Of a DNA stretch of 64,000 bases, positions 18,092-44,848 are shown one piece after another. Position 1 is the stretch's first letter; every line of letters starts with the position of its first letter. Both the position numbers and the translations under genes were made by a program. This stretch comes from a virus: the IMG/VR virus record IMGVR_UViG_3300047472_000237, positions 18,788-82,787 of that record; one strand, written 5' to 3'. The notes under the pieces were generated by a model. That model did no database searches, was not told the DNA's origin, and worked only from the letters and a program-made list of their open reading frames with translations.

Positions 18092-19627
18092 ATGACGCCT
18101 GACGACTTCAAGAAGCCGCCGTTCCCGCACCAGTTGTCCGAGTTCAACGGGCACAAGGACGACATTTCACGCGGACTGCTCTGGGAAATGGGCACCGGCA
18201 AGTCGAAGGAGACCATCGACCAGTCGGCTCACCTCATCGACGAAGGCAAGGTCGACTGCATCCTCGTCGTGGCCCCGGACGGCGTCCACCGCAATTGGGT
18301 GACGGACGAGATGCCATCGCACATGCCCGACAGGCTCCTGAAGCAGATGAAGATGTTCTGCTATCAGACCGACAAGGCCGCGACCAAGTGGCACCAGGCC
18401 GACGCCGAGGCGGTCCTCGCCCACCCTGGGCCGATCCTCATCGCCATGACCTACGACTCCGTGGTCACGGACGCCATCACGAAGAAGTGCCCCAACTCCG
18501 GCCGCCGCCTGACCATCTGGCGCGGCGGCAAGGCGTACCTGTGGGACATCCTCAAGAGCCGCAAGGTCATGTATGTCGCGGACGAGGCACGACGCATCAA
18601 GACCCCGACCGCAGACCGCACGAAGGTTGTAGTCAAGTCCTCCCCCTTCGCCAAGTACCGCCGTCTGCTGAACGGCACGCCAGTCCCCAACGGCCCGTTC
18701 GACCTGTTCAGCCAGATGCTGTTCCTTGACCCGAACTTCTGGCGGCCCCACGGCTGCTCCACGTTCGGTGCGTACAAGCAGATGTTCGGCACGTTCATCA
18801 CGAGCCATGTCCGCGATGCGAACGGCAACGTGCGGCCGTTCCAGCAGCTGGTGGCGTACCGCAACCTCGACCTGCTCCAGAAGATTCTCGGCACCATCTG
18901 CTCGCGTGTGACCAAGGACGAAGTCCTGAACCTCCCGCCGAAGCTGTACAGCCGCGCGACGTTCCAGATGACCGCCGCTCAGGAGAAGATCTACTCCGCC
19001 CTCCGGGACGAGTATCTCGCCGTGCTCGACGACGGCAGCCTGGTCACGGCCCCGCTGACCATCACGCGGATGCTCCGCTTCCAGCAGGTCACGAGCGGCT
19101 TCGTGCCGGTCACGCAGGTCGACGCGGACGCAGAGCCGATCCACGACATCGGGACGTCGAACCCGCGTCTCGAGCTCCTGGGCCAGATCATCGAGGACAT
19201 CCCCCACGGCTGCATCATCTGGGGCCGCTTCAACCGCACCATCGACAAGATCATGGAAATGCTCGGCGACCGCGCCGTGCGGTACGACGGCCAGGTCTCC
19301 AGCGACGACCGCGCCGAGGCCAAGCGGAAGTTCCAGGCGGGTGAAGCCCAGTTCTTCGTGGCGAAGGCCCAGAGTGCAGGCGAGGGTCTGACGCTGACCA
19401 AGGCCCGCACGGTCATCTACGTCGAGAACACCTTCGACCTGGCGATGCGACAGCAGTCGGAAGACCGCGCCCACCGCATCGGCCAGGAGCACCCGGTCAA
19501 CTACATCGACATCATCGCCGAGAACACGGTCGACGACCATATCGTGAAGGCCCTTCTCGACAAGTTCGATGTCGCCAACCAGATCACTGGCGACAAGGTC
19601 AAGCAGTGGCTCCAGTCCGTTGAATAG
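18092..19627 (+). CDS. SNF2-family (SF2) helicase
   Basis: EMGTGKS, ADEARRIK, LNGTP, GEGLTL, QSEDRAHRIGQ. Confidence 0.92.
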   Translation: MTPDDFKKPPFPHQLSEFNGHKDDISRGLLWEMGTGKSKETIDQSAHLIDEGKVDCILVVAPDGVHRNWVTDEMPSHMPDRLLKQMKMFCYQTDKAATKWHQADAEAVLAHPGPILIAMTYDSVVTDAITKKCPNSGRRLTIWRGGKAYLWDILKSRKVMYVADEARRIKTPTADRTKVVVKSSPFAKYRRLLNGTPVPNGPFDLFSQMLFLDPNFWRPHGCSTFGAYKQMFGTFITSHVRDANGNVRPFQQLVAYRNLDLLQKILGTICSRVTKDEVLNLPPKLYSRATFQMTAAQEKIYSALRDEYLAVLDDGSLVTAPLTITRMLRFQQVTSGFVPVTQVDADAEPIHDIGTSNPRLELLGQIIEDIPHGCIIWGRFNRTIDKIMEMLGDRAVRYDGQVSSDDRAEAKRKFQAGEAQFFVAKAQSAGEGLTLTKARTVIYVENTFDLAMRQQSEDRAHRIGQEHPVNYIDIIAENTVDDHIVKALLDKFDVANQITGDKVKQWLQSVE

Positions 19628-21273: not shown

Positions 21274-22500
21274 ATGGAATGGACGACAAAGCAACAACAG
21301 GCTCTCATCTCCGTCAAACGCTGGCTCGACAGTGGCGGAGAGGGCGTCTACCGCCTCTTCGGCTACGCGGGCACCGGCAAGACGACCCTCGCCAAGCACT
21401 TCGCTGAGGGCCTCGACGCCGGCTCTGTGCTCTACGCGGCCTTCACTGGCAAGGCCGCCTATGTGCTCCAGCAGAAGGGGTGCTTCGGGGCGACGACGCT
21501 CCACTCGCTCATCTACAAGCCGCAGGACAAGAGCCGCGCCCGGCTGACCGATCTCCGCAAGGCCCTCGACCACATCGAAGCCGCCCTGAAGGAGAAGGGC
21601 ATGCCTGAGGACAAGTGGCGGTTCGACACGCAGTGGAAGCAGTTCAACGACATGTACAAGGCGGAGGAGCAGAACGTCAAGCGCATGTCGTTCGCCCTGA
21701 ACACCGAGTCCGCTGTCGCCACCTGCAAGCTGCTCATCGTCGACGAGTGTTCGATGGTGGACGGCCGCATGGCCGAGGATCTCGCGACGTACAAGAAACC
21801 CATCCTCGTGCTGGGTGATCCCTTCCAGTTGCCGCCCGTGTTCGGCACCGGCGTCTACACCAACGCGGCCCCCGACTTCCTCCTGACCGAAGTGCGTCGT
21901 CAGGAAGCGGACAGCCCCGTGCTCCGCATTGCCACCGACATCCGCGAGGGCCGACCGATCACCAAGGGTGCGTATGGCTCGAGCCGGATCATCGACACCA
22001 AGTCCGTCGACAAGGACGAGGTCATGGCGTTCGACCAGGTGCTCGTCGGCACCAACAAGCGCCGGTATGGCACCAACGCCCGCATGCGTGAGCTCCTGGG
22101 CCGCTCGACGCCCCTCCCGGTCGCCACCGACAAGCTGGTCTGCCTTCGCAACAACCACGAGCAGGGCCTCCTGAACGGCGGCCTCTGGAACGTGGTGACG
22201 GCCGTCAACACTGACGACACTTCTGTCGACCTCGACATCGAGAGCGACGACGGCAAGCTGCGTGTCGTAACTCAGGCACACGCCCAATACTTCCAGGGCG
22301 GCGAGCCAGCCTTCTGGGACATCAAGGACAAGGACTCGTTCGACTACGGGTACGCCTTGACCGTCCACAAGTCGCAGGGCAGCCAGTGGAAGAAAGTCTA
22401 CATCTTCGACGAGAGCCGCGTGTTCCGCCAAGAGGCGCGACGCTGGCTCTACACGGCCGTCACCCGCGCCGCAGAAGATGTAGTTATCGTCCAAGACTAA
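21274..22500 (+). CDS. Dda/RecD-like SF1B helicase
   Basis: GYAGTGKT, AFTGKAA, VDECSM, GDPFQLPPV, YALTVHKSQGSQW, LYTAVTRA; start chosen at MEWTT. Confidence 0.92.
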   Translation: MEWTTKQQQALISVKRWLDSGGEGVYRLFGYAGTGKTTLAKHFAEGLDAGSVLYAAFTGKAAYVLQQKGCFGATTLHSLIYKPQDKSRARLTDLRKALDHIEAALKEKGMPEDKWRFDTQWKQFNDMYKAEEQNVKRMSFALNTESAVATCKLLIVDECSMVDGRMAEDLATYKKPILVLGDPFQLPPVFGTGVYTNAAPDFLLTEVRRQEADSPVLRIATDIREGRPITKGAYGSSRIIDTKSVDKDEVMAFDQVLVGTNKRRYGTNARMRELLGRSTPLPVATDKLVCLRNNHEQGLLNGGLWNVVTAVNTDDTSVDLDIESDDGKLRVVTQAHAQYFQGGEPAFWDIKDKDSFDYGYALTVHKSQGSQWKKVYIFDESRVFRQEARRWLYTAVTRAAEDVVIVQD

Positions 22501-22533
22501 CACTACAATTCGTTCACGCTTTGAGGTAACGCT

Positions 22534-23508
22534 ATGCGCCAACTATTCAACCCACGAGTCGCGTTCAAGCCGTTCGAGTACCCGGAGGTCACCGGGTATC
22601 GCGACGCGATCAACCATTCCTTCTGGCTCGTCTCGGAATGGAACTTCATCGCGGACCAGGGAGACTTCTCCCAGATGACACCGCTCGAACGCCGCGCGAT
22701 CCGCAACACGCTGCTGGCAATCTCGCAGATCGAAGTGTCTGTCAAGAAGTTCTGGGCTCAGTTGGGCGGCCGCATTCCCAAGGCCGAGTTCGACCAGGTC
22801 GGCATCACGTTCGGCGAGTCAGAAGTCCGCCACGCTGAAGCCTACAGCCACCTGCTGACCGTCCTGCACCTCAACGAAGACTTCGAGCAGATCCTGGAAG
22901 TCCCCGCCATTCGCGGCCGGGTGGACTACCTCGCCAAGTTCATGAAAGGTGCGAGCGCCTGCTCCGACCAGGAGTACGCCCTGACGCTGACGCTGTTCTC
23001 GTCCTTCATCGAGAACGTGTCGCTCTTCGCTCAGTTCGTCATCATCAAATCCTTCAACAAGCACCGCCAGGTGTTGAAGGACATCGACAATGTCGTATCG
23101 GCCACGCAGAAGGAAGAGCTCATCCACGCCGCCTTCGGCCAGTACGTCGTCAACACAATCCGTAGCGAGAACCCCGGATGGTTCGGAACGGATTTCTACA
23201 TCCGGCTCGAGGAAGCCGCTCACGCCGCGTACAAGGCGGAACGTGCTATCCTCGACTGGATCTTCGAGGCCGGCGAGCTCCCATGGCTCAGCAAGGCCGC
23301 CCTCGACCAGTTCATCCGTCAGCGGCTCAACGAGAGCCTGACGGCAGTCGGAGCGGACACGATCTTCGTCGTCGACCAGGCCCTCCTGGGCGAACTCACG
23401 TGGTTCTACGAAGAGCTCCACGCTGGCATCAGCGTCGACTTCTTCCACGTCCGCTCCGTTGACTATTCCAAGAAACAGCAGGCCGTGCAGGCAGGAGACT
23501 TGTTCTGA
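22534..23508 (+). CDS. nrdB: Ribonucleotide reductase class I beta subunit
   Basis: KPFEYP, ISQIEVSVK, ESEVRHAEAY, IENVSLF, EELIH di-metal ligands. Confidence 0.92.
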   Translation: MRQLFNPRVAFKPFEYPEVTGYRDAINHSFWLVSEWNFIADQGDFSQMTPLERRAIRNTLLAISQIEVSVKKFWAQLGGRIPKAEFDQVGITFGESEVRHAEAYSHLLTVLHLNEDFEQILEVPAIRGRVDYLAKFMKGASACSDQEYALTLTLFSSFIENVSLFAQFVIIKSFNKHRQVLKDIDNVVSATQKEELIHAAFGQYVVNTIRSENPGWFGTDFYIRLEEAAHAAYKAERAILDWIFEAGELPWLSKAALDQFIRQRLNESLTAVGADTIFVVDQALLGELTWFYEELHAGISVDFFHVRSVDYSKKQQAVQAGDLF

Positions 23509-25151
23509 TGTCGTACCGATGGCTCACACCCGAATCACAGACGTTTCTCGAACGCGACTACCTCATGCCGGGGCAGACCGTGGACGAGCGGATCGATATC
23601 ATCTGCAACCGCGCGGAGGAGCTCCTGCAACGCCCAGGGCACGCGGCTCGGCTGAAGGAGTGTCTCCAGAAAGGGTGGATCACCCTCGCCTCGCCCATCC
23701 TGACCAACTTCGGCACCAGCCGGGGTCTGCCCATCAGCTGCTTCGGCAGCAGCATCGAAGACTCCATGGAGTCGATCGTCCGGACGCACGCTGAGGTGTG
23801 CATCATGACGAAGCACGGCGGCGGCACGAGCGGCTACTTCGGCAAGCTGCGTGGTCGTAATGTGCCGATCAAGGACAACGGCGTCTCGAGCGGCTCCGTC
23901 CACTTCATGCAGCTGTTCAACACGGCGATCAACGTCGTGTCCCAGGGCACCACCCGGCGCGGCCAGTTTGCCGCGTACCAGGACATCGAGCACCCCGACG
24001 TCGAAGAGTTCCTCAAGATCCGCTCGGATGGCAACAAGATCCAGGACATCCTGTTCGGGGTCTGCGTCAGCGATGCGTTCATGGAGCGGATGATCGACAA
24101 CAACGGGCCGGAGCGGGTGCTGTGGGCGAAGGTGCTCCAGAGCCGCGCGGCCATCGGTCTGCCCTACATCTTCTTCACCGACAACGCCAACCGCCAGGCC
24201 CCCGACTGCTATCGCAACGAGGGGATGAAGATCACCCACTCGAACCTGTGCACCGAGATCATGCTCCCCGACTGCGACGAAGAGTCGTTCGTCTGCGATC
24301 TCTCGAGCATGGTCGATCTGTACTACGACGAGTGGAAGGACACGCACGCGGTCGAGACGCTGGCGTACACCCTGGAAGCCGTGATGACCGAGTTCATCAT
24401 GAAGGGCCAGCATGTGCCGTACCTCGAACGCGCCGTGCGGTTTGCCCGCCGCCACCGTGCCCTGGGCATTGGCCGCGTCGGCTGGCACAGCTACCTCCAG
24501 AGCCTCATGCTCCCGTTCGAGGGCCTGACCGCCCGACTGCTGAACGCGGAGATCTCCGCCACGATCCAGCGGCAGGCTCTGGCCGCGTCGAAGGCTATGG
24601 CTGTGACCTACGGCGAGCCTGAGGTGCTGAAAGGCTACGGCCGCCGCAACGCCACGCTCATCGCCATCGCCCCGACCAAGTCGACCGCGTTCATCTTCGG
24701 TCAGCTGTCCGAGGGCATCGAGCCGTGGACGACCAACTATCAGGTCTCGAAGCTCCAGAAGGGCAGCTTCCCCATCCGCAACCGCTTCCTCCAGAAGCTG
24801 CTCGCCGCCAAGGGCAAAGACACCGAAGAGACCTGGAAGAGCATCCTGGAGCACAGCGGCTCCGTGCAGCACTTCGACTTCCTCGACAAGGAAGAGAAGG
24901 CTGTGTTCAAGACCTTCGTCGAGATCTCGCCGCTTGAGGTCGTTGAACAGGCGGCCGGCCGGCAACGCTTCATCGACCAGGGCCAGTCCACCAACCTCAT
25001 GATCCAGCCGTCGATCCCGATCAAGGACGTGAACGCGCTCCTGATCACGGCCTGGCGGAAGGGTCTCAAATCGCTCTACTATCAGAAGAGCGTGAACGCC
25101 GCACAGGAGTTCGCCCGCAACATCATGCACTGTGCCGCCTGCGAAGGCTGA
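23508..25151 (+). CDS. nrdA: Ribonucleotide reductase class I alpha subunit
   Basis: GLPISCF, GGGTS, SNLCTEI, IAPT, IDQGQS, C-terminal CAACEG. Confidence 0.94.
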   Translation: MSYRWLTPESQTFLERDYLMPGQTVDERIDIICNRAEELLQRPGHAARLKECLQKGWITLASPILTNFGTSRGLPISCFGSSIEDSMESIVRTHAEVCIMTKHGGGTSGYFGKLRGRNVPIKDNGVSSGSVHFMQLFNTAINVVSQGTTRRGQFAAYQDIEHPDVEEFLKIRSDGNKIQDILFGVCVSDAFMERMIDNNGPERVLWAKVLQSRAAIGLPYIFFTDNANRQAPDCYRNEGMKITHSNLCTEIMLPDCDEESFVCDLSSMVDLYYDEWKDTHAVETLAYTLEAVMTEFIMKGQHVPYLERAVRFARRHRALGIGRVGWHSYLQSLMLPFEGLTARLLNAEISATIQRQALAASKAMAVTYGEPEVLKGYGRRNATLIAIAPTKSTAFIFGQLSEGIEPWTTNYQVSKLQKGSFPIRNRFLQKLLAAKGKDTEETWKSILEHSGSVQHFDFLDKEEKAVFKTFVEISPLEVVEQAAGRQRFIDQGQSTNLMIQPSIPIKDVNALLITAWRKGLKSLYYQKSVNAAQEFARNIMHCAACEG

Positions 25152-25175
25152 TCGCTCTCGCCGAGCTCCAACGCA

Positions 25176-25206
25176 GACGCCCTGGGCCAGCAGCCCAGGG
25201 CGTTTC
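25176..25206 (+). terminator. Intrinsic terminator after nrdA
   Basis: ACGCCCTGGGC-CAGCA-GCCCAGGGCGT followed by TT. Confidence 0.65.
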
Positions 25207-25305
25207 GCATTTTGCGATGAATCAGCTTGCTTTCCGGGATAAGTGCGGGCATGATACATCCCGTCGCCGAAAGGCATTAACCCTTCTCTATCTGAGGAAC
25301 TGTCC

Positions 25306-26001
25306 ATGAACGTGCCGTACACTTCGAACGCGCTCGGCTTGACCATCAAGTCCGCTGACGACATCAAGACCCTCGAGCCCAAGCAGATGCTCTCGCTCCA
25401 CAACGAGATCTCGAACGCCTCCGTCAAGCGGTTCGCCGACAAGAAGAGCGGCGTCAAGCGCACGGTCGAAGCGTTCCAGACCTGGCAAGGCCAGCAGACC
25501 GAGAAGACGCCCAAGCTGGTCACCGCCGACCACAAGTCCTTCCGCAAGGACAGTGCCCGTGGCAAGGTCATCGCCGCTGCCTCGAAGGCCGGCGGTGCGA
25601 CCCGCGCCCAGCTGAAGGAGATCTCCGGCTGGGACGACACGAACCTGACGGCGGCCCTGAGCCGCGTCGAGTCGTACAACGGCCTGACCGTGACCCGCAC
25701 CGGCGAAGGCGACGAGCAGATCATCGTCATCACCGGCGTCCTCCGCACCCGCAAGGCGTTCGCCTTCGACCCGCTCCCCGAGAAGCAGCGTCGAGCACAC
25801 AAGGAGAGCGGCACGCCGACCAAGCGCTCCAAGGTCGTCGCCATGCTCACCGCCAAGGGCGGGGCCTCGTTCGAGGAGATCCAGGCGGCCACCGACTGGA
25901 ACGACCGCGACGCGTACGAAGGCATCCGTCTCATCCACAGCTATCTTGGATATGGCCTGAAAGAGACGGGCGAAGGCAAGATCATCGCTTTCCGCGCGTA
26001 A
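25306..26001 (+). CDS. Basic protein with two winged-helix-like domains
   Basis: Repeated unit SARGKVIAAASKAGGATRAQLKEISGW / TKRSKVVAMLTAKGGASFEEIQAATDW; promoter TTGCTT-17-CATGAT at 25227-25255. Confidence 0.6.
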   Translation: MNVPYTSNALGLTIKSADDIKTLEPKQMLSLHNEISNASVKRFADKKSGVKRTVEAFQTWQGQQTEKTPKLVTADHKSFRKDSARGKVIAAASKAGGATRAQLKEISGWDDTNLTAALSRVESYNGLTVTRTGEGDEQIIVITGVLRTRKAFAFDPLPEKQRRAHKESGTPTKRSKVVAMLTAKGGASFEEIQAATDWNDRDAYEGIRLIHSYLGYGLKETGEGKIIAFRA

Positions 26002-26006
26002 TTCGC

Positions 26007-26034
26007 TTGCTACTGCCGCCAAGTGCGGTAAACT
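26007..26034 (+). promoter_or_regulatory. Sigma-70-like promoter driving the structured RNA / modification cluster
   Basis: TTGCTA-16-TAAACT; predicted +1 near 26041 coincides with the first base of the closing helix. Confidence 0.65.
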
Positions 26035-26040
26035 GAAGTC

Positions 26041-26350
26041 GTCCTGATTGAGGCAGTCGGCCGCCCCGCTCACCCCGAGGGCGAAGACTGCAAAAATCAA
26101 AGTCGAGCAACGCCACAGAGGAGCTCCGGCTCCTCCAACCTGAGTCGCTTGCGGGTCTTCGGCCCCGTGAAGCGATGGCCCGTAAACGGTCGGGTCTGTA
26201 ACCAGGCATCGGTTCTGGAATGTAAACCGCCAACAGACGACTTGTGCGTCAACCACTGGCGGAGCATGAAGGAATCGCGCGGCGGGTGAGTGCACCACTG
26301 CAAGATTTCGGGGGATGAACAACGTCGTTCGTCGACTGCCTCATCAGGAC
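26041..26350 (+). ncRNA. Unassigned ~310-nt structured RNA
   Basis: 20-bp terminal helix (26041-26061 with 26331-26350), nested helices, two UNCG tetraloop hairpins, own promoter, no credible ORF. Confidence 0.7.
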
Positions 26351-26369
26351 ACTTTTCTCGAAAGAACCT

Positions 26370-27230
26370 ATGGCCTCCCAGAACTATCCCCGCGTCACGA
26401 TTGAAGACTTTGGCAAGCACCTGCTCGACGCGGGCGATCTGGATCCCATCTATCTCGGCCTCCACCGGCTGGCCCTCCCCGCGAATCAGCTTCATCGCTG
26501 GCTCCTGGCATACTGTTGCTTCTACAGCGCCGGCGTCGCTTCGTACCTCTCTGAGTTCGAGGGTGCGACCTTCTGGGAACACTTCCTCACCGCTGCCAAG
26601 AACGAGACCCCGGCCCCGCATGGCGGACGTTGGGAGCGTGGCAAGGAACGTCGCCACTTCCGTGGCGGACAGGCCATCAAGGCCACCAACGAGCTCATCG
26701 GCAAGTACCCCGTCCCCGAACTCGCCTTCAACGGGCACCTGGTCCGCCCCGGCGAGACCCGCCTACCCTTCAGCGTGGTCAGCGACCGCGCTCAGGAGTG
26801 GCGAGGCTTCGGCACCTGGATCTCCTTCAAGGTCGGCGACCTGCTCGACCGTGTCGGCATTATCCCCGTCGACTTCGCGTTTGACGAGGCGATGTACGAA
26901 GATCCGACCAAGGCCGCGATCATGCAGTGGAAGCTGCGGCGCGACCTGCCCCAGGACTCGACCATCGACGACCCGAAGGCCGCCGTGCAGGAGATCGTCG
27001 CGTACCTCATCGAGCACTTCAAGGACTATCTGGCCCCGCCGCTGCTCGACCGCCCCATCGGCCTCCAGGAGGTCGAGACGATCCTCTGCAAGTGGAAGTC
27101 GCACATCAACGGGCACTACCCGTTCTTCAACGACACGGTCGAGATCCACCACGGTGTCTCTCCCTGGGCCAACCACAGCGACACGGCCAAGCGGTTCCTC
27201 GCTGCCATGCCTCAGCCGCCGGCCAAGTAA
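26370..27230 (+). CDS. Amino acid:DNA transferase (aGPT-Pplase2 family)
   Basis: GDLDPIY, WLLAYCCFY, WERGKERRHFRG, FGTWISFKVGD, QEVETILCKWKSH. Confidence 0.85.
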   Translation: MASQNYPRVTIEDFGKHLLDAGDLDPIYLGLHRLALPANQLHRWLLAYCCFYSAGVASYLSEFEGATFWEHFLTAAKNETPAPHGGRWERGKERRHFRGGQAIKATNELIGKYPVPELAFNGHLVRPGETRLPFSVVSDRAQEWRGFGTWISFKVGDLLDRVGIIPVDFAFDEAMYEDPTKAAIMQWKLRRDLPQDSTIDDPKAAVQEIVAYLIEHFKDYLAPPLLDRPIGLQEVETILCKWKSHINGHYPFFNDTVEIHHGVSPWANHSDTAKRFLAAMPQPPAK

Positions 27231-27269
27231 TCCGTTTGCCTTCTGTCGCCTTTCAGTGTATCTTCGATC

Positions 27270-28103
27270 ATGAGCACAACAGTCAACATCATCGGGGCCG
27301 GGATCGCTGGCTCCATCACTTCAACCCTCCTCCGCACGGCAGGGTTCAACACGCGGGTCATCGACGACGCTGACAAGTTCTCCGCCAGCGCGGCGAGCTC
27401 CAACCTGTTCATCGTCGATTGGTACGACACCGACCTGAAGCAGATCGCTGACGGCTTCGACGTGCTCGAGATGCTCTACAAGGACGTGACGGAGTTCCCG
27501 TTCAAGGCCGGCATCAAGATCGCACCCCGCATGCTGCACATCGGGCAGCGTCACCTGCTGGTCAAGCCGGACGTGATCGGCACTGTGACCTACGCCGACG
27601 AGCAGGGAGTCGCCCTGGGCGACATGCAGCACTTCGATGGCCCAGTGATCCTGGCGGCCGGCTACCGCGCCAACACGCTCATCCGCGACCACGCTCAGCA
27701 CCACGACATCGAGGTCTACGCGGGCCACCGCTACCTGTTCAAGGGAGACCTGGCCGAGGGCCGCCTCGACATGGTCGCACCGTACAAGCACGGCAAGCTG
27801 TACCAGTACGCACCGGGGCAGATCTACTACGCCGACAGCGTGAAGCTCCAGCTGAAGTCCTACAACAAGCGACAGGCCGAGATCCAGGAGCGGACGCTCG
27901 CTCGTGCCCAGGCGGCACTAGGTCGTACAGACCTCGAGATCATCGACTTCCGAGTGGGGTATCGCCCTGTCATCGCTGAGAAACCGCTTGGCGTACTCGA
28001 CCGCATCAGCAAGAATGTGTGGAGTATGAACGGCGGCGGCAAGAACGGCACTGTCGCCTATGCCGGCCTCGCCCGGCAGCTTCTCGAGGAGCTCAGGGCC
28101 TGA
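27270..28103 (+). CDS. FAD-dependent oxidoreductase (glycine oxidase/DAO-like)
   Basis: IIGAGIAG, ASAAS, ILAAG, VGYRP, GGGKNG; promoter TTGCCT-17-TATCTT at 27236-27264. Confidence 0.8.
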   Translation: MSTTVNIIGAGIAGSITSTLLRTAGFNTRVIDDADKFSASAASSNLFIVDWYDTDLKQIADGFDVLEMLYKDVTEFPFKAGIKIAPRMLHIGQRHLLVKPDVIGTVTYADEQGVALGDMQHFDGPVILAAGYRANTLIRDHAQHHDIEVYAGHRYLFKGDLAEGRLDMVAPYKHGKLYQYAPGQIYYADSVKLQLKSYNKRQAEIQERTLARAQAALGRTDLEIIDFRVGYRPVIAEKPLGVLDRISKNVWSMNGGGKNGTVAYAGLARQLLEELRA

Positions 28104-28268
28104 TGAGCAAGAAGGCCGGCAAACCTCTCCTGCCATTCTTCAAGTCGCTTCGCAAGCGCAAGAAGAAAGGGAAGAAGCGGACCATCGTAACTGACTGGGA
28201 CTTGCCGCCGATCGTGGAGAAGACGAAGACCCTTGCCGATTGCTACGAAGAGGACTACAGTGACCGCA

Positions 28269-28718
28269 ATGCAAATCCGCCCCGCCACCCCCGACGACCA
28301 CAAACGCCTCTGCGAGATCGCCCGCTCACACCGCGCGGGGAACGGCTTCTCGAACATTCAAATGTTCAGCGGCCCGACCCACTACGCTAACGGCTGGCTG
28401 CGTGTGATGGTCGACGCCGAAGGCAAGATCGTCGCCTTCACCTGCATTCGTCAGAAGAAGACGACGAAGCAGACGAAGCTCTACTACATCATCGTGGACA
28501 CGGCGTACCGCTCCGGCGGCATCGTCGACAACAAGCCGGTCGTCGGCATCGGCCAGGCGCTCCTGGATGACCTGATCACCAACTCCCCGTATCGCGAGCT
28601 CATCTGCGACTGCCTGAAGGACAATGAGCCGGCTCTGAAGTTCTACAAGAAGAACGGCTTCGAGATCGTGGGTGAGTCCCTCAAGGGCAAGGGACACATC
28701 CTCCTGAAGAAGTGGTGA
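28269..28718 (+). CDS. GNAT acetyltransferase
   Basis: MQIRPAT..YRSGG..GIGQALL..NEPALKFYKKNGF. Confidence 0.85.
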   Translation: MQIRPATPDDHKRLCEIARSHRAGNGFSNIQMFSGPTHYANGWLRVMVDAEGKIVAFTCIRQKKTTKQTKLYYIIVDTAYRSGGIVDNKPVVGIGQALLDDLITNSPYRELICDCLKDNEPALKFYKKNGFEIVGESLKGKGHILLKKW

Positions 28719-28934
28719 GCACGGAGTGAACTTGTCGGGCCAAACCTCGTGCACGGCCTGCTTGCCTTAAATGCTGCCGCCCGGTCGAGGTCGGGAGAGG
28801 CGAATCCAGGTGCTCACCACTCTTGAGGGAACTATGGACACCATCATCGTCGCTCATCATGTCGCACACTTCAGCTGTGCACTACTTACTCTCTTGTGCA
28901 TCGCCTACGTCGCGAAGCCGAAGGACCGTTCCCA

Positions 28935-29588
28935 ATGCGTAACCCGACCATCGTCAATATCCGTGGCACGAGCGGCTCTGGCAAGAGCACTCTGGTCAAG
29001 GCGATATTCGCCCGCTGCACCAATGTCGAGCCAGTGCGGGCACCTTCCACCGCGAAGCGCAAGCAGCCGCTCGGCTACACGATGCAATACAACTCGCTCG
29101 GCGCGGAGAACAACCCGCAGAAGCTGTTCATCGCCGGCCACTACGAATCAGCCTGCGGCGGCTGCGACACGTTGGGGAAGTACCTTCCCGATGTCGTCAC
29201 TCCTCGTCTGATCGGCGACGACACCGAGCCGAACAGCTACCACTTGACCTTCGGCCTGGTGCGTGAGTACTGGCGGCGCGGCTACAACGTCGTGTTCGAG
29301 GGCCTGCTCATCAGCGGCGACGTGCGGCACACCAAGGCCCTCCACGACGACGCCCTCCCCATCAACGTGGTCGGCTTCGACCTGCCCGTGGACTTCTGCA
29401 TCGCGTCCGTCCTCGAGCGGCGGAAGGCCGCTGGCAACGTCAAGGAGTTCAACGAGGCCAACACGCGGGACAAGCACCGCCTCCTCGTGAACTGCCTCTC
29501 GAAGCTCGACGTGGCGGGCGTGCCCGTACAACGCTGCGGCACTCGAGAGCTCGCCTCGGACGCGGTCTACGCCCTCCTGGGCATGTAA
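28935..29588 (+). CDS. P-loop kinase, putative 5-hydroxymethyl-dU DNA kinase
   Basis: NIRGTSGSGKST, GHYESACGGCD, VVFEGLL; context in modification cluster. Confidence 0.75.
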   Translation: MRNPTIVNIRGTSGSGKSTLVKAIFARCTNVEPVRAPSTAKRKQPLGYTMQYNSLGAENNPQKLFIAGHYESACGGCDTLGKYLPDVVTPRLIGDDTEPNSYHLTFGLVREYWRRGYNVVFEGLLISGDVRHTKALHDDALPINVVGFDLPVDFCIASVLERRKAAGNVKEFNEANTRDKHRLLVNCLSKLDVAGVPVQRCGTRELASDAVYALLGM

Positions 29589-29656
29589 CGTGCGACGCCG
29601 CTCCAGGCCGCTCCGACCCGCTCGGAGCGGCCTCTCTTTGGCCCCGAAAGTTCAAC

Positions 29657-30565
29657 ATGATCGACGCAAACGTCAACGTCTTCTTCGCGCTCGCACGAGA
29701 GCGGTACGCCATCCAGCGCCGGCGCGAGGGGACGATCCCCAACCCGCACGCTCCCCACTTCTCGGCCAACCCGATCTTCCAGCGGTATCGGTTCTGCAAC
29801 CTGTTCCGCGAGCAGGATCGGACGACGGCCTGGTTCCGGGACACGCTGCGTGAGCCGCTCCGCAACGACGCGGCCCGCGTGCTGTTCGCCACCATCGCCT
29901 TCCGCTGGTTCAACCGCATCAGCACCGGGAAGCTCATCAGCGGCTTCCTGATGGAGGGCCACCGGACGTGGAAGCCTGAGAGCATCCGCACGATCCTGAA
30001 GGACGTGAAGCCGGTCGTCACCGGCGCGTACATCATCAAGACGCCGAACGGCATGAACAAACTCGACGGCGTGCTGTGGTGCATCGAACAGGTGCGGAAG
30101 GACATCGACCATCTTGCGGGTGCCCTGGGCCACACGCCGCCCGATGAACGCTCGCTCGAAGGCACGTGGGAGGCGCTCCGCCAGTTCCCGTATCTCGGCG
30201 ACTTCATGTCGTACGAAGTCGTCACGGACTTGCGACACACCTGCTGGCTCGACCAGGCGTCCGACCGCTACACGTGGTGCAATCCTGGCCCAGGGTGTAC
30301 GCGGGGCCTCGGGTGGGTCGTCCACGGCGACTTCGACCGCTGGAACAGGAGCTCGAAGACCGACCGCGCGGCCATGCAGCCTCACCTGGAGAAGCTGCTC
30401 GAGCTCGCCAACAGCGACAGCGAGCTCTGGCCCGACGACTTCCCGGACTGGGAGATGCGCGAGGTCGAGCACTGGCTCTGCGAAGTGTGCAAGTATGTCC
30501 GCGTTGAGAGCGGCGGCTCTCCGCCGAAGGAAATCTTCAGGAATGCGCTTGCCTCCGTGAAGTGA
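29657..30565 (+). CDS. aGPT-Pplase1-family protein (5-hmdU kinase-associated helical domain)
   Basis: PIFQRYRFCNLFREQDRTT, FRWFN, GDFMSYEVVTD, GPGCTRGL, VEHWLCEVCKY. Confidence 0.85.
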   Translation: MIDANVNVFFALARERYAIQRRREGTIPNPHAPHFSANPIFQRYRFCNLFREQDRTTAWFRDTLREPLRNDAARVLFATIAFRWFNRISTGKLISGFLMEGHRTWKPESIRTILKDVKPVVTGAYIIKTPNGMNKLDGVLWCIEQVRKDIDHLAGALGHTPPDERSLEGTWEALRQFPYLGDFMSYEVVTDLRHTCWLDQASDRYTWCNPGPGCTRGLGWVVHGDFDRWNRSSKTDRAAMQPHLEKLLELANSDSELWPDDFPDWEMREVEHWLCEVCKYVRVESGGSPPKEIFRNALASVK

Positions 30566-30584
30566 ACGGGATAACTTCGCCGCA

Positions 30585-31127
30585 GTGCGTCGATTCAAGG
30601 CAGCGAAACCTCTGGCCCGTATCACCGACGAGAGCGTCAAGGCGCGGCTGGAAGAGAATCGGCGGCTCGCTCCCTGTCCGGTTGCGGCCTACGTGCCGGA
30701 CGGCAGCCCGCTGAAGGGCGACTGCTGGGAGTGGACTGGATGTGCCCCGGATGGGTACGGCCAGATCAAGGTCGCGGGCGTCGTGCAGCGGGTGCACCGC
30801 GTCTCCTTCGCCGTGTACAAGGGCGAAGTCCCGAGGAAGATCACCGTCGATCACCTCTGCCACAACCCGAAGTGTTTCAATCCAGAGCACCTGGAACTAC
30901 AGACTGCCGCCATCAACTCTGGCTACAGTCGCATGGAGTACCGATATGATTGTTCTCAAGGCACGCAATGCCCACCAGGCCCTGCCGGAGATGATGCACC
31001 AGGTCCAGAGCAACGACAAAGCGGTGACGCGGTCGAGCCGGAACGGGCCTGTGATCCAGTTTGTGGAGCCGTTCACGATCCAGTACGCGAAGCCGACGGA
31101 GCGGGTGGTGTTCTGGCCGGAACGTGA
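30585..31127 (+). CDS. HNH endonuclease (homing-type)
   Basis: CWEWTG..GYGQI..HRVSF..VDHLCHNPKCFNPEHLE; 3' end overlaps next gene. Confidence 0.8.
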   Translation: MRRFKAAKPLARITDESVKARLEENRRLAPCPVAAYVPDGSPLKGDCWEWTGCAPDGYGQIKVAGVVQRVHRVSFAVYKGEVPRKITVDHLCHNPKCFNPEHLELQTAAINSGYSRMEYRYDCSQGTQCPPGPAGDDAPGPEQRQSGDAVEPERACDPVCGAVHDPVREADGAGGVLAGT

Positions 31128-32029: not shown

Positions 32030-32104
32030 TGACGCGATGGTCCAGATGGTAGGGCCGTGGGCTCATAACCCGCTGCATCGAAGGTTCGACTCCTTCCGCG
32101 TCAG
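32030..32104 (+). tRNA. tRNA with CAT anticodon (initiator-like, atypical)
   Basis: Acceptor TGACGCG/CGCGTCA, D-loop TGGTA, anticodon arm GTGGG-CTCATAA-CCCGC, T-arm GAAGG-TTCGACT-CCTTC; no encoded CCA. Confidence 0.8.
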
Positions 32105-43302: not shown

Positions 43303-44040
43303 ATGCGTATCGCCCGATCGTTCCTTTGCTCCTTCCTCGTGCTCACGCTCGTGGGCCTTCTCACTTTGCCGTCCGGTGGCTGTAAGGGCCACATCGAGAA
43401 CGCGAAGTCCATCAACGCCCAGGTCAAGCTCAAGACCGCCGAGATCGGGAAGGCTGCGGCCGTGGCGACCGCCCACGTTGTCGCCGCAGACGTAGCGGTC
43501 AAGCGGGCCGACGTAGCCGTCCGCGCGGCGGCCACGCAGCCCTCCAACCCGCCGGAGACCGTACGCCTCCTGAGCGAGGCGACGGACGACCACAAGGTGG
43601 CCCTGGCGGAGCTACCGAAGGCCGTCGTCGAGCTCAAGAAGGTCGCCCCGGCGACCCAGGCGGTGGCCGTCCTCTCCGACAAGGCAGAGGCCGTAACGGT
43701 CAAGGCCGTCGAGCAGCGTGACGCCGAGCGCGACCATTGGGTCGGATACAAGACGCGACAAGCGTTGCTGAAGGGGGTGATCGGCTTCGGCGGCATTGCA
43801 CTCGTCCTGGGCGTGATCACGTTTATCGTCAAGACGAACGGGGCCACGCCCATCCTTATGGCCCTCCGGCAGGTCGGCGGAATTATTGTTCAATTGGCCT
43901 TGCGTTTCCTTCGCTGGTTGGGCAGAATCACCTTCACGTTGGTGACGTTGGGAGCGAATAAGCTGGCCGACATTACCAACGAGAAGTACGAACAGCATGA
44001 ACAGGCGAAGGCGGCCGACGCCACGCAGAGCTCCGCGTGA
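43303..44040 (+). CDS. Putative lipoprotein with C-terminal TM segments (spanin-like topology)
   Basis: Signal peptide ending ..LPSGGC, Ala-rich helical core, hydrophobic C-terminal helices; GGAGG RBS. Confidence 0.5.
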   Translation: MRIARSFLCSFLVLTLVGLLTLPSGGCKGHIENAKSINAQVKLKTAEIGKAAAVATAHVVAADVAVKRADVAVRAAATQPSNPPETVRLLSEATDDHKVALAELPKAVVELKKVAPATQAVAVLSDKAEAVTVKAVEQRDAERDHWVGYKTRQALLKGVIGFGGIALVLGVITFIVKTNGATPILMALRQVGGIIVQLALRFLRWLGRITFTLVTLGANKLADITNEKYEQHEQAKAADATQSSA

Positions 44041-44058
44041 AGTGAGCTCCACTCAAGC

Positions 44059-44098
44059 CGACGTCAGGCGGAGTGCCCACTCCGCCTGACGTCGTTTT
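44059..44098 (+). terminator. Intrinsic terminator
   Basis: CGACGTCAGGCGGAGT-GCCC-ACTCCGCCTGACGTCG-TTTT. Confidence 0.8.
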
Positions 44099-44110
44099 GG
44101 AGTCAGCTCA

Positions 44111-44848
44111 ATGGCCGTGAAGATCTCAATCATCAACCACTCCCACAAGGGATACGCGGACACCATCCCCGGCGTCCCATCCCTCGTCGACCTCGCCTTC
44201 GCTGATCCCCCGTACAACTTCGGCGTCAAGTACGCCGACGATCCGACCAAGGATCGCATGACGCCCGCCGCCTACGAAGACTTCTGTAGCGGCATCATCT
44301 ACACGATGTCGCAGAACCTGAAGCCGGGCGGCACCGCCTGGTGGCTGTGCCCGTCGGCGCACATGGACTTCATCCCGGCGCTGATGACCAAGCACGTCGG
44401 CCCGCTCATCTATCGGATCATCAAGACCGAGACGTTCGCCCAGTACCAGCAGGCGAACTTGACCGACGACTACCGGATGTTGTTCGTGGCCCAGAAGCCT
44501 GGCGGCCCGCTGACCCTGAACCCGGACGCGATCCGCATCCCGTCCAAGCGGCAGGAGCTCTACAAGGACAAGCGTGCTGACCCGCGCGGTCGCGTCCCCG
44601 GCCAGACTTGGGAGATCCGCCGCCTCCAGGGCACCAGCACCGACCACGTCGACTGGCACAAGGCTCAGCTTCCGCCCGAACTACTCTCACGCATCGCCCT
44701 CGGTTGGACAAACCCCGGCGACACAATCCTCGATATGTTTGCAGGCTCCGGCAACTTCGCACTCGTGTGCAAGGCCCTCGGCCGCAACTTCTACGGCGTC
44801 GATCAATCCCCCACGTACGTCGGCAAGATGAAGGAACGGATAGCGTAA
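44111..44848 (+). CDS. N6-adenine/N4-cytosine DNA methyltransferase (beta class)
   Basis: ADPPYN near N-terminus, LDMFAGSG near C-terminus. Confidence 0.88.
   Translation: MAVKISIINHSHKGYADTIPGVPSLVDLAFADPPYNFGVKYADDPTKDRMTPAAYEDFCSGIIYTMSQNLKPGGTAWWLCPSAHMDFIPALMTKHVGPLIYRIIKTETFAQYQQANLTDDYRMLFVAQKPGGPLTLNPDAIRIPSKRQELYKDKRADPRGRVPGQTWEIRRLQGTSTDHVDWHKAQLPPELLSRIALGWTNPGDTILDMFAGSGNFALVCKALGRNFYGVDQSPTYVGKMKERIA

Follow-up and report, generated by a model that had tools for sequence, protein, structure and literature searches.

The stretch of DNA analyzed here (the window) comprises 64,000 nt, positions 18,788 to 82,787 of IMG/VR virus record IMGVR_UViG_3300047472_000237, a soil phage genome of 82,787 bp that CheckV rates as complete; all coordinates refer to the window. 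Our subject is a 310-nt element that lies between two protein genes and whose two ends are joined by a 20-bp helix (P1; Table 1). By Pfam, the genes leading up to it encode the small (22534 to 23508) and large (23508 to 25151) chains of ribonucleotide reductase and then a 231-aa protein with a DUF3489 match. A gap of 368 nt follows (26002 to 26369), extending from the stop codon of the DUF3489 gene to the ATG of an amino acid:DNA transferase (ADDT) gene at 26370, a start that was confirmed by homology to the N termini of relatives, aligned from residue 1. Behind ADDT come genes for a flavin adenine dinucleotide (FAD) oxidoreductase and a GNAT acetyltransferase and, farther along, the helical domain of a 5-hydroxymethyldeoxyuridine (5-hmdU) DNA kinase. 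The published account of Pseudomonas phage PaMx11 reports an equal enzyme set (PMC8989533), and the PaMx11 gene order also matches (nrdB, nrdA, terminator, small gene, AADT, FAD enzyme, and acetyltransferase). The cluster is of the PaMx11 type for thymidine hypermodification, headed by the ADDT gene. Since PaMx11 shares both enzyme set and gene order, the element stands at the head of a hypermodification cluster, where an initial annotation, made from the letters of the window, had placed it; the Pfam matches to all four enzymes agree.

Table 1. Coordinates of the element, its parts, and its flanking features
Feature	Window coordinates	Strand	Evidence
Motif copy 1, GCTTGCT-N9-AAGTGCGG (25225-25248), then -10-like bases; upstream of the DUF3489 gene	25225-25255	+	Exact match
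231-aa protein gene, two DUF3489-like repeats	25306-26001	+	PF11994, residues 170-199, E 4.7e-10
Motif copy 2, GCTTGCT-N9-AAGTGCGG (26005-26028), abutting TAAACT; predicted promoter of the element	26005-26034	+	Exact match
Non-coding element, candidate structured RNA or leader, 310 nt	26041-26350	+	Minimum free energy (MFE) -142 kcal/mol, z -5.69; single copy in the genome
P1, 5' arm	26041-26061	+	Pairs with 26331-26350, probability 0.89-0.99
Hairpin GAGGAGC-UCCG-GCUCCUC, 7 bp, C(UCCG)G loop	26118-26135	+	Pair probability 0.99-1.00
Long interrupted arm: CGGUUCU/GGAAUCG, AUGU/GCAU, CCGCCA/UGGCGG, GACG/CGUC	26210-26277	+	Mean pair probabilities 0.94, 0.99, 0.99, 0.74
P1, 3' arm	26331-26350	+	Pairs with 26041-26061
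Linker, U-rich run and weak Shine-Dalgarno-like GAAAG before the ADDT start	26351-26369	+	Sequence reading; not called as a terminator
ADDT gene, first of the hypermodification cluster	26370-27230	+	PF18724, E 1.1e-21

The gap is non-coding. The GC content at third codon positions (GC3) is at least 0.9 in both genes beside it (0.9 to 0.98 in the DUF3489 gene) and is flat across the gap itself (0.56 to 0.72), the codon composition of which is not phage-like: open reading frames (ORFs) in the gap gave codon log-likelihoods of -0.10 to -0.48, within the wrong-frame range, versus 0.505 ± 0.208 for real genes. These codon tests, together with the gap coordinates, bear out the ORF-free gap described at first. 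None of four gap ORFs matched Pfam, and an 83-aa antisense ORF matched none of 5.8 billion proteins and was missing even from the called proteins of its own contig. A 46-aa ORF was accepted by a crude GC3 gene caller and then ruled out as a gene by its non-coding-like codon usage. A decayed ORF was likewise rejected, as tblastx against all loci and against the ORFs that relatives carry at this position returned nothing below an E value of 0.016. A 29-codon ORF with an ATG start (26315 to 26404) opens toward the 3' side of the element and runs across the ADDT start in a different reading frame; proper Shine-Dalgarno spacing is absent, and the ORF is probably meaningless. The GAAAG ahead of the ADDT ATG is also found in two relatives (loci L005 and L021).

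The two ends of the element pair as GTCCTGA (26041 to 26047) with TCAGGAC (26344 to 26350) and as 26049 to 26061 with 26331 to 26343. P1 contains 18 Watson-Crick pairs, one G-U pair, one further C-G pair, and one bulged U, and its pair probabilities (Table 1) uphold the end-to-end helix with one bulge and one G-U that had been read from the sequence. It is the sole long-range inverted repeat of such strength in the genome. In first-order Markov genomes scanned for an exact 11-nt seed with 7 more pairs across a bulge of at most 1 nt and arms 30 to 600 nt apart (the 11+7-bp rule), equivalents of P1 occurred in 3 of 400; under a looser 10+7-bp rule, 6 of 100 simulated genomes held a P1-type repeat. 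P1 ends 19 nt before the ADDT ATG. No intrinsic terminator was called after it in a scan of 22000 to 31000, which listed 29618 to 29630 alone; the run that follows P1 is ACTTTTCTC, and the "hairpin" closed by P1 encloses 269 nt, unlike the short GC-rich hairpin of a terminator.

Directly upstream lies the motif GCTTGCT-N9-AAGTGCGG (24 nt, 15 specified bases), of which the 82.8-kb genome contains exactly two copies. Both are intergenic and on the + strand, 780 nt apart, one before and one after the DUF3489 gene, and the similarity between them continues for ~20 nt upstream. By our own estimate, the chance of a second exact copy in ~166 kb (both strands) would be ~1.5e-4. When up to 3 mismatches were allowed, there was no enrichment (4 found versus 2.25 expected), and no copy was detected ahead of ADDT in relatives, 934 kb of which contained 2 unrelated loose matches. 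The TAAACT that the downstream copy abuts resembles the TAnACT -10 element of repeated promoters in phage YuA (AM749441), annotated as "sigma70 promoter requiring phage-encoded cofactor"; one of the YuA copies precedes a DUF3489-type gene, gp08. Its exact duplication provides good evidence that the motif is a real regulatory site, either promoter or operator, and the two copies may form a promoter or operator pair, perhaps serving the tandem winged-helix protein whose gene they flank. P1 and the promoter motif are non-random. The transcript start (+1) would fall at G26041, seven bases after TAAACT and the first base of P1.

Inside P1, every motif listed in the initial annotation is present where it had been placed, including the short repeats GTAA(A)C (three times) and ACTGCAA (twice), which were checked by reading the sequence. 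The hairpin at 26118 to 26135 and the CCGCCA/TGGCGG stem also form in the predicted ensemble, with pair probabilities of 0.99 to 1.0 and 0.99, respectively. The CCCCG/CGGGG and CTCACCC/GGGTGAG helices exist as sequences, but their pair probability is just 0.31 to 0.51. A hairpin with a UUCG loop, proposed for 26145 to 26175, is disfavored (outer pairs, ~0.27; loop-proximal pairs, 0.0 to 0.07), with UUGCGGGUC/GGCCCGUAA as the competing pairing (probability 0.71), and the proposed CCAGG/TCTGG stem is displaced by CGGUUCU/GGAAUCG (0.94). In the modeled fold, two interior parts are robust, namely the hairpin at 26118 to 26135 and the arm at 26210 to 26277. UNCG loops, which had been taken to favor RNA over a DNA cruciform, turn out to be weak evidence: the genome has 4 C(UNCG)G hairpins per strand, versus 2.5 ± 1.6 in simulations.

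Comparison with known RNA families assigned the element to none of them. Rfam 15 (4227 models), run on the whole window at gathering thresholds, returned only a tRNA (32031 to 32103), and on 25950 to 26420 at E ≤ 10 it returned only an 18-nt match to a CrcZ hairpin (26118 to 26135; 7.9 bits versus a gathering score of 95), whose E value of 7.6 is at chance level. ARAGORN found 0 tRNA or tmRNA genes in 25800 to 26500, no ribozyme family matched the element at E values up to 10, and no known aptamer (riboswitch) class matched in Rfam. ARAGORN, the Rfam models, and motif reading thereby agree with the earlier statement that tmRNA and hammerhead hallmarks are absent. A hammerhead ribozyme was considered, as CUGAUGAG occurs on the - strand in a P1 arm, but no GAAA follows the adjacent hairpin and no model matched at E ≤ 10; this candidate was rejected.

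Searches for homologues of the element gave a similar outcome. A "distant" blastn search found no match in 50,697 phage records or in 72,556 plasmids, and nhmmer and blastn against 82 and then 162 ADDT loci, as well as against 42 pattern-match loci, gave only chance matches of 13 to 30 nt. We also used a covariance model (R1) of the single sequence and its constrained MFE structure, an insensitive probe that distant homologues could escape. Against the 162 ADDT loci and the window, its best non-self scores were 15.5 and 13.5 bits, each from one hairpin; against 50 whole IMG/VR records it found 0 matches at E ≤ 1; and against 34 further records it gave hairpin-level matches only (PaMx11, 13.6 bits; YuA, 8.8 bits), compared to 390.8 bits for the own-genome control. 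The P1 arm pattern was found in 0 IMG/VR contigs. In one genome each for 185,579 species it was found at 42 loci, each a single arm, in unrelated phyla and without extended similarity; we estimate that a pattern of 18 specified bases would match ~35 times at random in 596 Gb. The sequencing runs listed as containing the sequence included no RNA run and consisted of a single rhizosphere metagenome, probably the source sample; among its contigs, the source contig alone covers the element region, and variants were not found. As judged from these comparisons, the element is an orphan candidate with no known family.

We assign a probability of about 40% to the reading that the element serves the modification operon as a structured 5' leader specific to this lineage, in which the closing helix would set the processing or stability of the message and hence its translation. 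Given the 19 nt between P1 and the ATG and the absence of a called terminator, ADDT would have to be transcribed through the element, which would at least initially be a 5' leader. The initial annotation had left the choice between a discrete non-coding RNA and a leader; the short distance to the ATG, with no room for another promoter, favors the leader, and a stand-alone gene is less well supported. Transcription of the + strand would start at ~26041, placing the element within the first 329 nt of the hypermodification operon mRNA, and the transcript would begin base-paired, its start coinciding with P1. A closing helix of 20 bp is typical of RNase III substrates and of end-protected stable RNAs, and P1 has the at least 20 bp (about two turns) of nearly uninterrupted double-stranded RNA by which RNase III substrates are defined. 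P1 more likely serves, as double-stranded RNA, for processing or protection. An enzyme of the RNase III type in the host could cut it, parting the leader both from the coding message and from upstream read-through transcripts; if left uncut, P1 could shield the 5' end from decay; and, cut or uncut, it would determine how stable the ADDT message is and how well it is translated. Cleavage could release a stable RNA of ~310 nt with at least three well-supported hairpin arms, either as a by-product or as an effector. In transcripts from an upstream promoter, the helix could grow to 24 bp by spanning a second bulge. At pair probabilities of 0.89 to 0.99, a 20-bp P1 is probably too stable for a ligand-operated switch.

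Several observations weigh against such a leader. The inverted repeat can be extended by AAGT/ACTT past the predicted +1, across a bulged C, to 24 bp with a second bulge, which suits a DNA-level repeat or transcripts started upstream equally well. The TTGCTA-16-TAAACT promoter of the initial annotation gains from the duplicated motif directly upstream, but its hexamers are weak by reading, matching 8/12 consensus bases, and were not listed by a consensus scan with a threshold of 9/12; the duplicated motif could be an operator instead of a promoter. Neither the 162 ADDT loci and 84 whole phage records nor the plasmid searches and pattern scans yielded a homologue of the element. The fold of the whole element is unusual on both strands (+ strand, z -5.69; - strand, z -3.58), neither of which was equaled in stability by any of 100 shuffles, and this signal is mostly P1. 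The interior without P1 (26062 to 26329) has a z score of -2.05 on the + strand (6 of 200 shuffles as stable) and -0.96 on the - strand (36 of 200). When adjusted for GC against 1650 310-nt windows from the same genome, the + strand z score is -2.33, with 15/1650 windows as low or lower, a rank that flatters the element, which was framed on its own helix while the background windows were not. Both the whole element and its interior fold better on + than on -, in agreement with the + strand RNA favored at first. However, the ornate interior described at first is barely above background by either interior measure, several of its helices were misassigned, and an "ornate structured RNA" is not demonstrated. 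Finally, RNase III cleavage, 5'-end protection, and the effect on ADDT are argued by analogy, a look-up of the RecJ-like protein in the Atlas having given no usable host taxon, and the start and span of the transcript are predictions from the sequence of an uncultured phage.

The position of the element in relatives bears on a second explanation. Homologues of the ADDT protein number 492 at E ≤ 0.001, the closest non-self ones having 62 to 63% identity. We compared 162 ADDT loci, some of which are one contig in two collections; the alignment-based search (A1) contributed 80 IMG/VR and 80 metagenome loci, with a best identity of 53%. ADDTs of 58 to 63% identity were present in neither the IMG/VR nor the metagenome locus collection, and a single-protein ADDT scan of IMG/VR found no relatives. 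A homologue of the DUF3489 protein was detectable directly upstream of ADDT in 49 of the 162 loci. The spacing between the two genes was ≤170 nt in 34 of these 49 (the usual spacer in relatives is 12 to 170 nt) and >280 nt in the other 15; the 7 of these longer gaps that were inspected carry open frames of 93 to 194 aa. At this slot YuA has the 88-aa gp09, and PaMx11 has 51 nt. A DNA polymerase scan found 4 loci at 61 to 62% identity, and the nearest phages by this measure include L034, L035, and L038, which have small ORFs in the slot. Overall, the slot of relatives holds zero to three small ORFs unrelated to the element (for example, L033, 2319 to 3000; L034, 2110 to 3000; L038, 2534 to 3000; and L002, 2731 to 2994). 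Since relatives have a short spacer or small accessory ORFs here, the element is, by this comparison, a lineage-specific insertion into a plastic slot.

The main rival to a working leader is a neutral or selfish DNA insertion located between the promoter and the ADDT ribosome-binding site, with folding as a by-product: either a sequence resembling a miniature inverted-repeat transposable element (MITE) with 18- to 20-bp terminal repeats or the decayed remnant of a "moron." We consider this rather unlikely. In keeping with an insertion, the element is a discrete 310-bp segment bounded exactly by an inverted repeat and absent from all relatives examined, its excision (26041 to 26350) would restore a 58-nt spacer typical of relatives, and the slot is plastic, as the long ORF-bearing gaps and YuA gp09 illustrate. 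The folding signal comes mostly from the terminal repeat, and the repeat runs 4 bp past the predicted transcript start. However, of the properties of a MITE, the element has the terminal inverted repeats and neither of the others. No direct repeat is common to the two flanks (GAAGTC and ACTTTT), so that no target-site duplication was found at the plausible boundaries tried. Multiple copies were not found: the element is single-copy in the phage, the arm pattern is absent from IMG/VR, and its 42 single-arm matches among the 185,579 species genomes are about the number expected by chance, a result that does not extend to the host genome. The tblastx search found no similarity to the slot ORFs of relatives, and the left repeat starts exactly at the predicted +1.

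A third explanation, which we regard as unlikely, is a discrete trans-acting phage RNA (a scaffold, decoy, anti-defense RNA, or ribozyme) that would be released from the operon transcript and perhaps work with the DUF3489 protein. The element has its own copy of the promoter motif, three high-probability hairpin arms, no coding capacity, and no known family match, and stable RNAs typically have their 5' and 3' ends paired. Set against this are the lack of a called terminator, the lack of room for a separate ADDT promoter, and conservation that was not found anywhere searched. A search elsewhere in the phage genome also found no long complementary stretch (best match, 14 nt; E 0.09), and the null result with ribozyme families at E values up to 10 argues against a ribozyme. 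As for a partner, the initial annotation had suggested the protein encoded immediately upstream. Nothing links the two: the DUF3489 gene keeps its place next to ADDT in phages from which the element is missing, and the protein therefore does not need the element.

It is very unlikely that the element acts as DNA, for instance as a cruciform, as a replication origin primed by transcription, or as a binding region for a regulator that would loop the two arms together. The inverted repeat is present in the DNA as well and reaches past the predicted transcript start, and the duplicated motif flanks a putative DNA-binding winged-helix-turn-helix gene in the manner of an operator pair. However, arms 269 bp apart are unfavorable for cruciform extrusion, the folding asymmetry between the strands favors RNA, and the element lacks the features of an origin: cumulative GC skew has no inflection there, iterons and tandem repeats were not found, and there is no AT-rich segment (GC, 0.56 to 0.61). 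Across the genome, GC skew is monotonic, and 82 of 88 genes lie on the + strand by a crude gene call, in line with a + strand transcript.

An improbable version of the RNA reading would make the element the first known member of a new class of phage RNAs devoted to DNA hypermodification, ~310 nt long, promoter-proximal, and end-clamped. Such an RNA would sense an input to the pathway, for instance the supply of amino-acid or acetyl donor or of 5-hmdU nucleotide, or would work with the DUF3489 winged-helix protein, and would time or target the ADDT operon; its orphan status would then reflect poor sampling of this soil lineage.

The proposed leader has counterparts among known systems. Among RNase III-processed phage leaders and spacers, the lambda N leader, the RNase III sites of the T7 early region, and the leader of the Qin prophage DicF precursor likewise place a near-perfect double-stranded helix upstream of the first gene of an operon, are transcribed from a phage promoter, and have a helix ending tens of nucleotides before the ribosome-binding site. 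Their helices are local hairpins of tens of nucleotides, whereas that of the element is a 20-bp helix closing a 269-nt multibranched interior, which brings it closer to the stems that flank rRNAs and serve in their processing. The likeness is one of general description; the element has no Rfam match, and its cleavage is proposed by analogy. The HK022 put RNAs, which act in processive antitermination, resemble the proposed leader in being structured, in following a phage promoter immediately at the start of a long operon, and in a potential for action in cis; unlike the element, they are ~70 nt long, with two stem-loops and without an end-to-end helix. ROOL and GOLLD, which are Rfam families, are similarly phage-borne non-coding multibranched RNAs of several hundred nucleotides, and no family in Rfam 15 matched the element. 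They are defined by covariation over hundreds of members, whereas the element is a singleton candidate with weak interior statistics. Bacterial MITEs, such as Correia elements, and very small mobile elements of phages, such as mycobacteriophage MPME, share with the element a discrete ORF-less segment of a few hundred base pairs with terminal inverted repeats, inserted between genes, cotranscribed with the downstream gene, and varying in presence among relatives. The element differs in being single-copy, with no target-site duplication and no identified transposase; neither IMG/VR nor the 185,579 species genomes yielded a further copy in which both arms pair.

Should the element prove to function as a leader or RNA, no earlier regulatory RNA would be linked to an operon for thymidine hypermodification, and a case of a large, end-clamped phage leader would be added. 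Passages of the pathway paper retrieved by term search contain no mention of "intergenic" or "non-coding," and "promoter" appears in them only for expression vectors (PMC8989533). If the element is an insertion only, it would mark a plastic slot between two conserved genes at which related phages swap small accessory cargo. The paired promoter or operator motif around the conserved DUF3489 gene is a separate lead on how the cluster is switched on.

The DUF3489 protein itself may be a conserved, uncharacterized companion of thymidine-hypermodification clusters. Its two repeats are seen by reading the translation, Pfam detecting the second alone, and its PHROG matches are to families of unknown function only. 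By position next to ADDT, its homologues in YuA and PaMx11 are gp08 and gp45, respectively. Just 3' of the nrdA-like gene, at 25177 to 25203, a perfect 11-bp GC-rich hairpin is followed by a T-rich run; this is likely a terminator matching the one annotated after PaMx11 nrdA, although the consensus terminator scan did not list it. The tRNA gene at 32031 to 32103, the sole Rfam match in the window (41.2 bits), lies inside the modification and replication module. Elsewhere in the window, an imperfect palindrome with 49-nt arms (44027 to 44126) lies within the most over-stable 310-nt windows of the genome (43814 to 44320), whose residual z scores of -3.3 to -3.6 on the - strand exceed the extremity of the element. 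A perfect 18-bp hairpin with a loop of 2 (719 to 756; GGCAC/GTGCC) lies in another strongly over-stable region, 514 to 1020.

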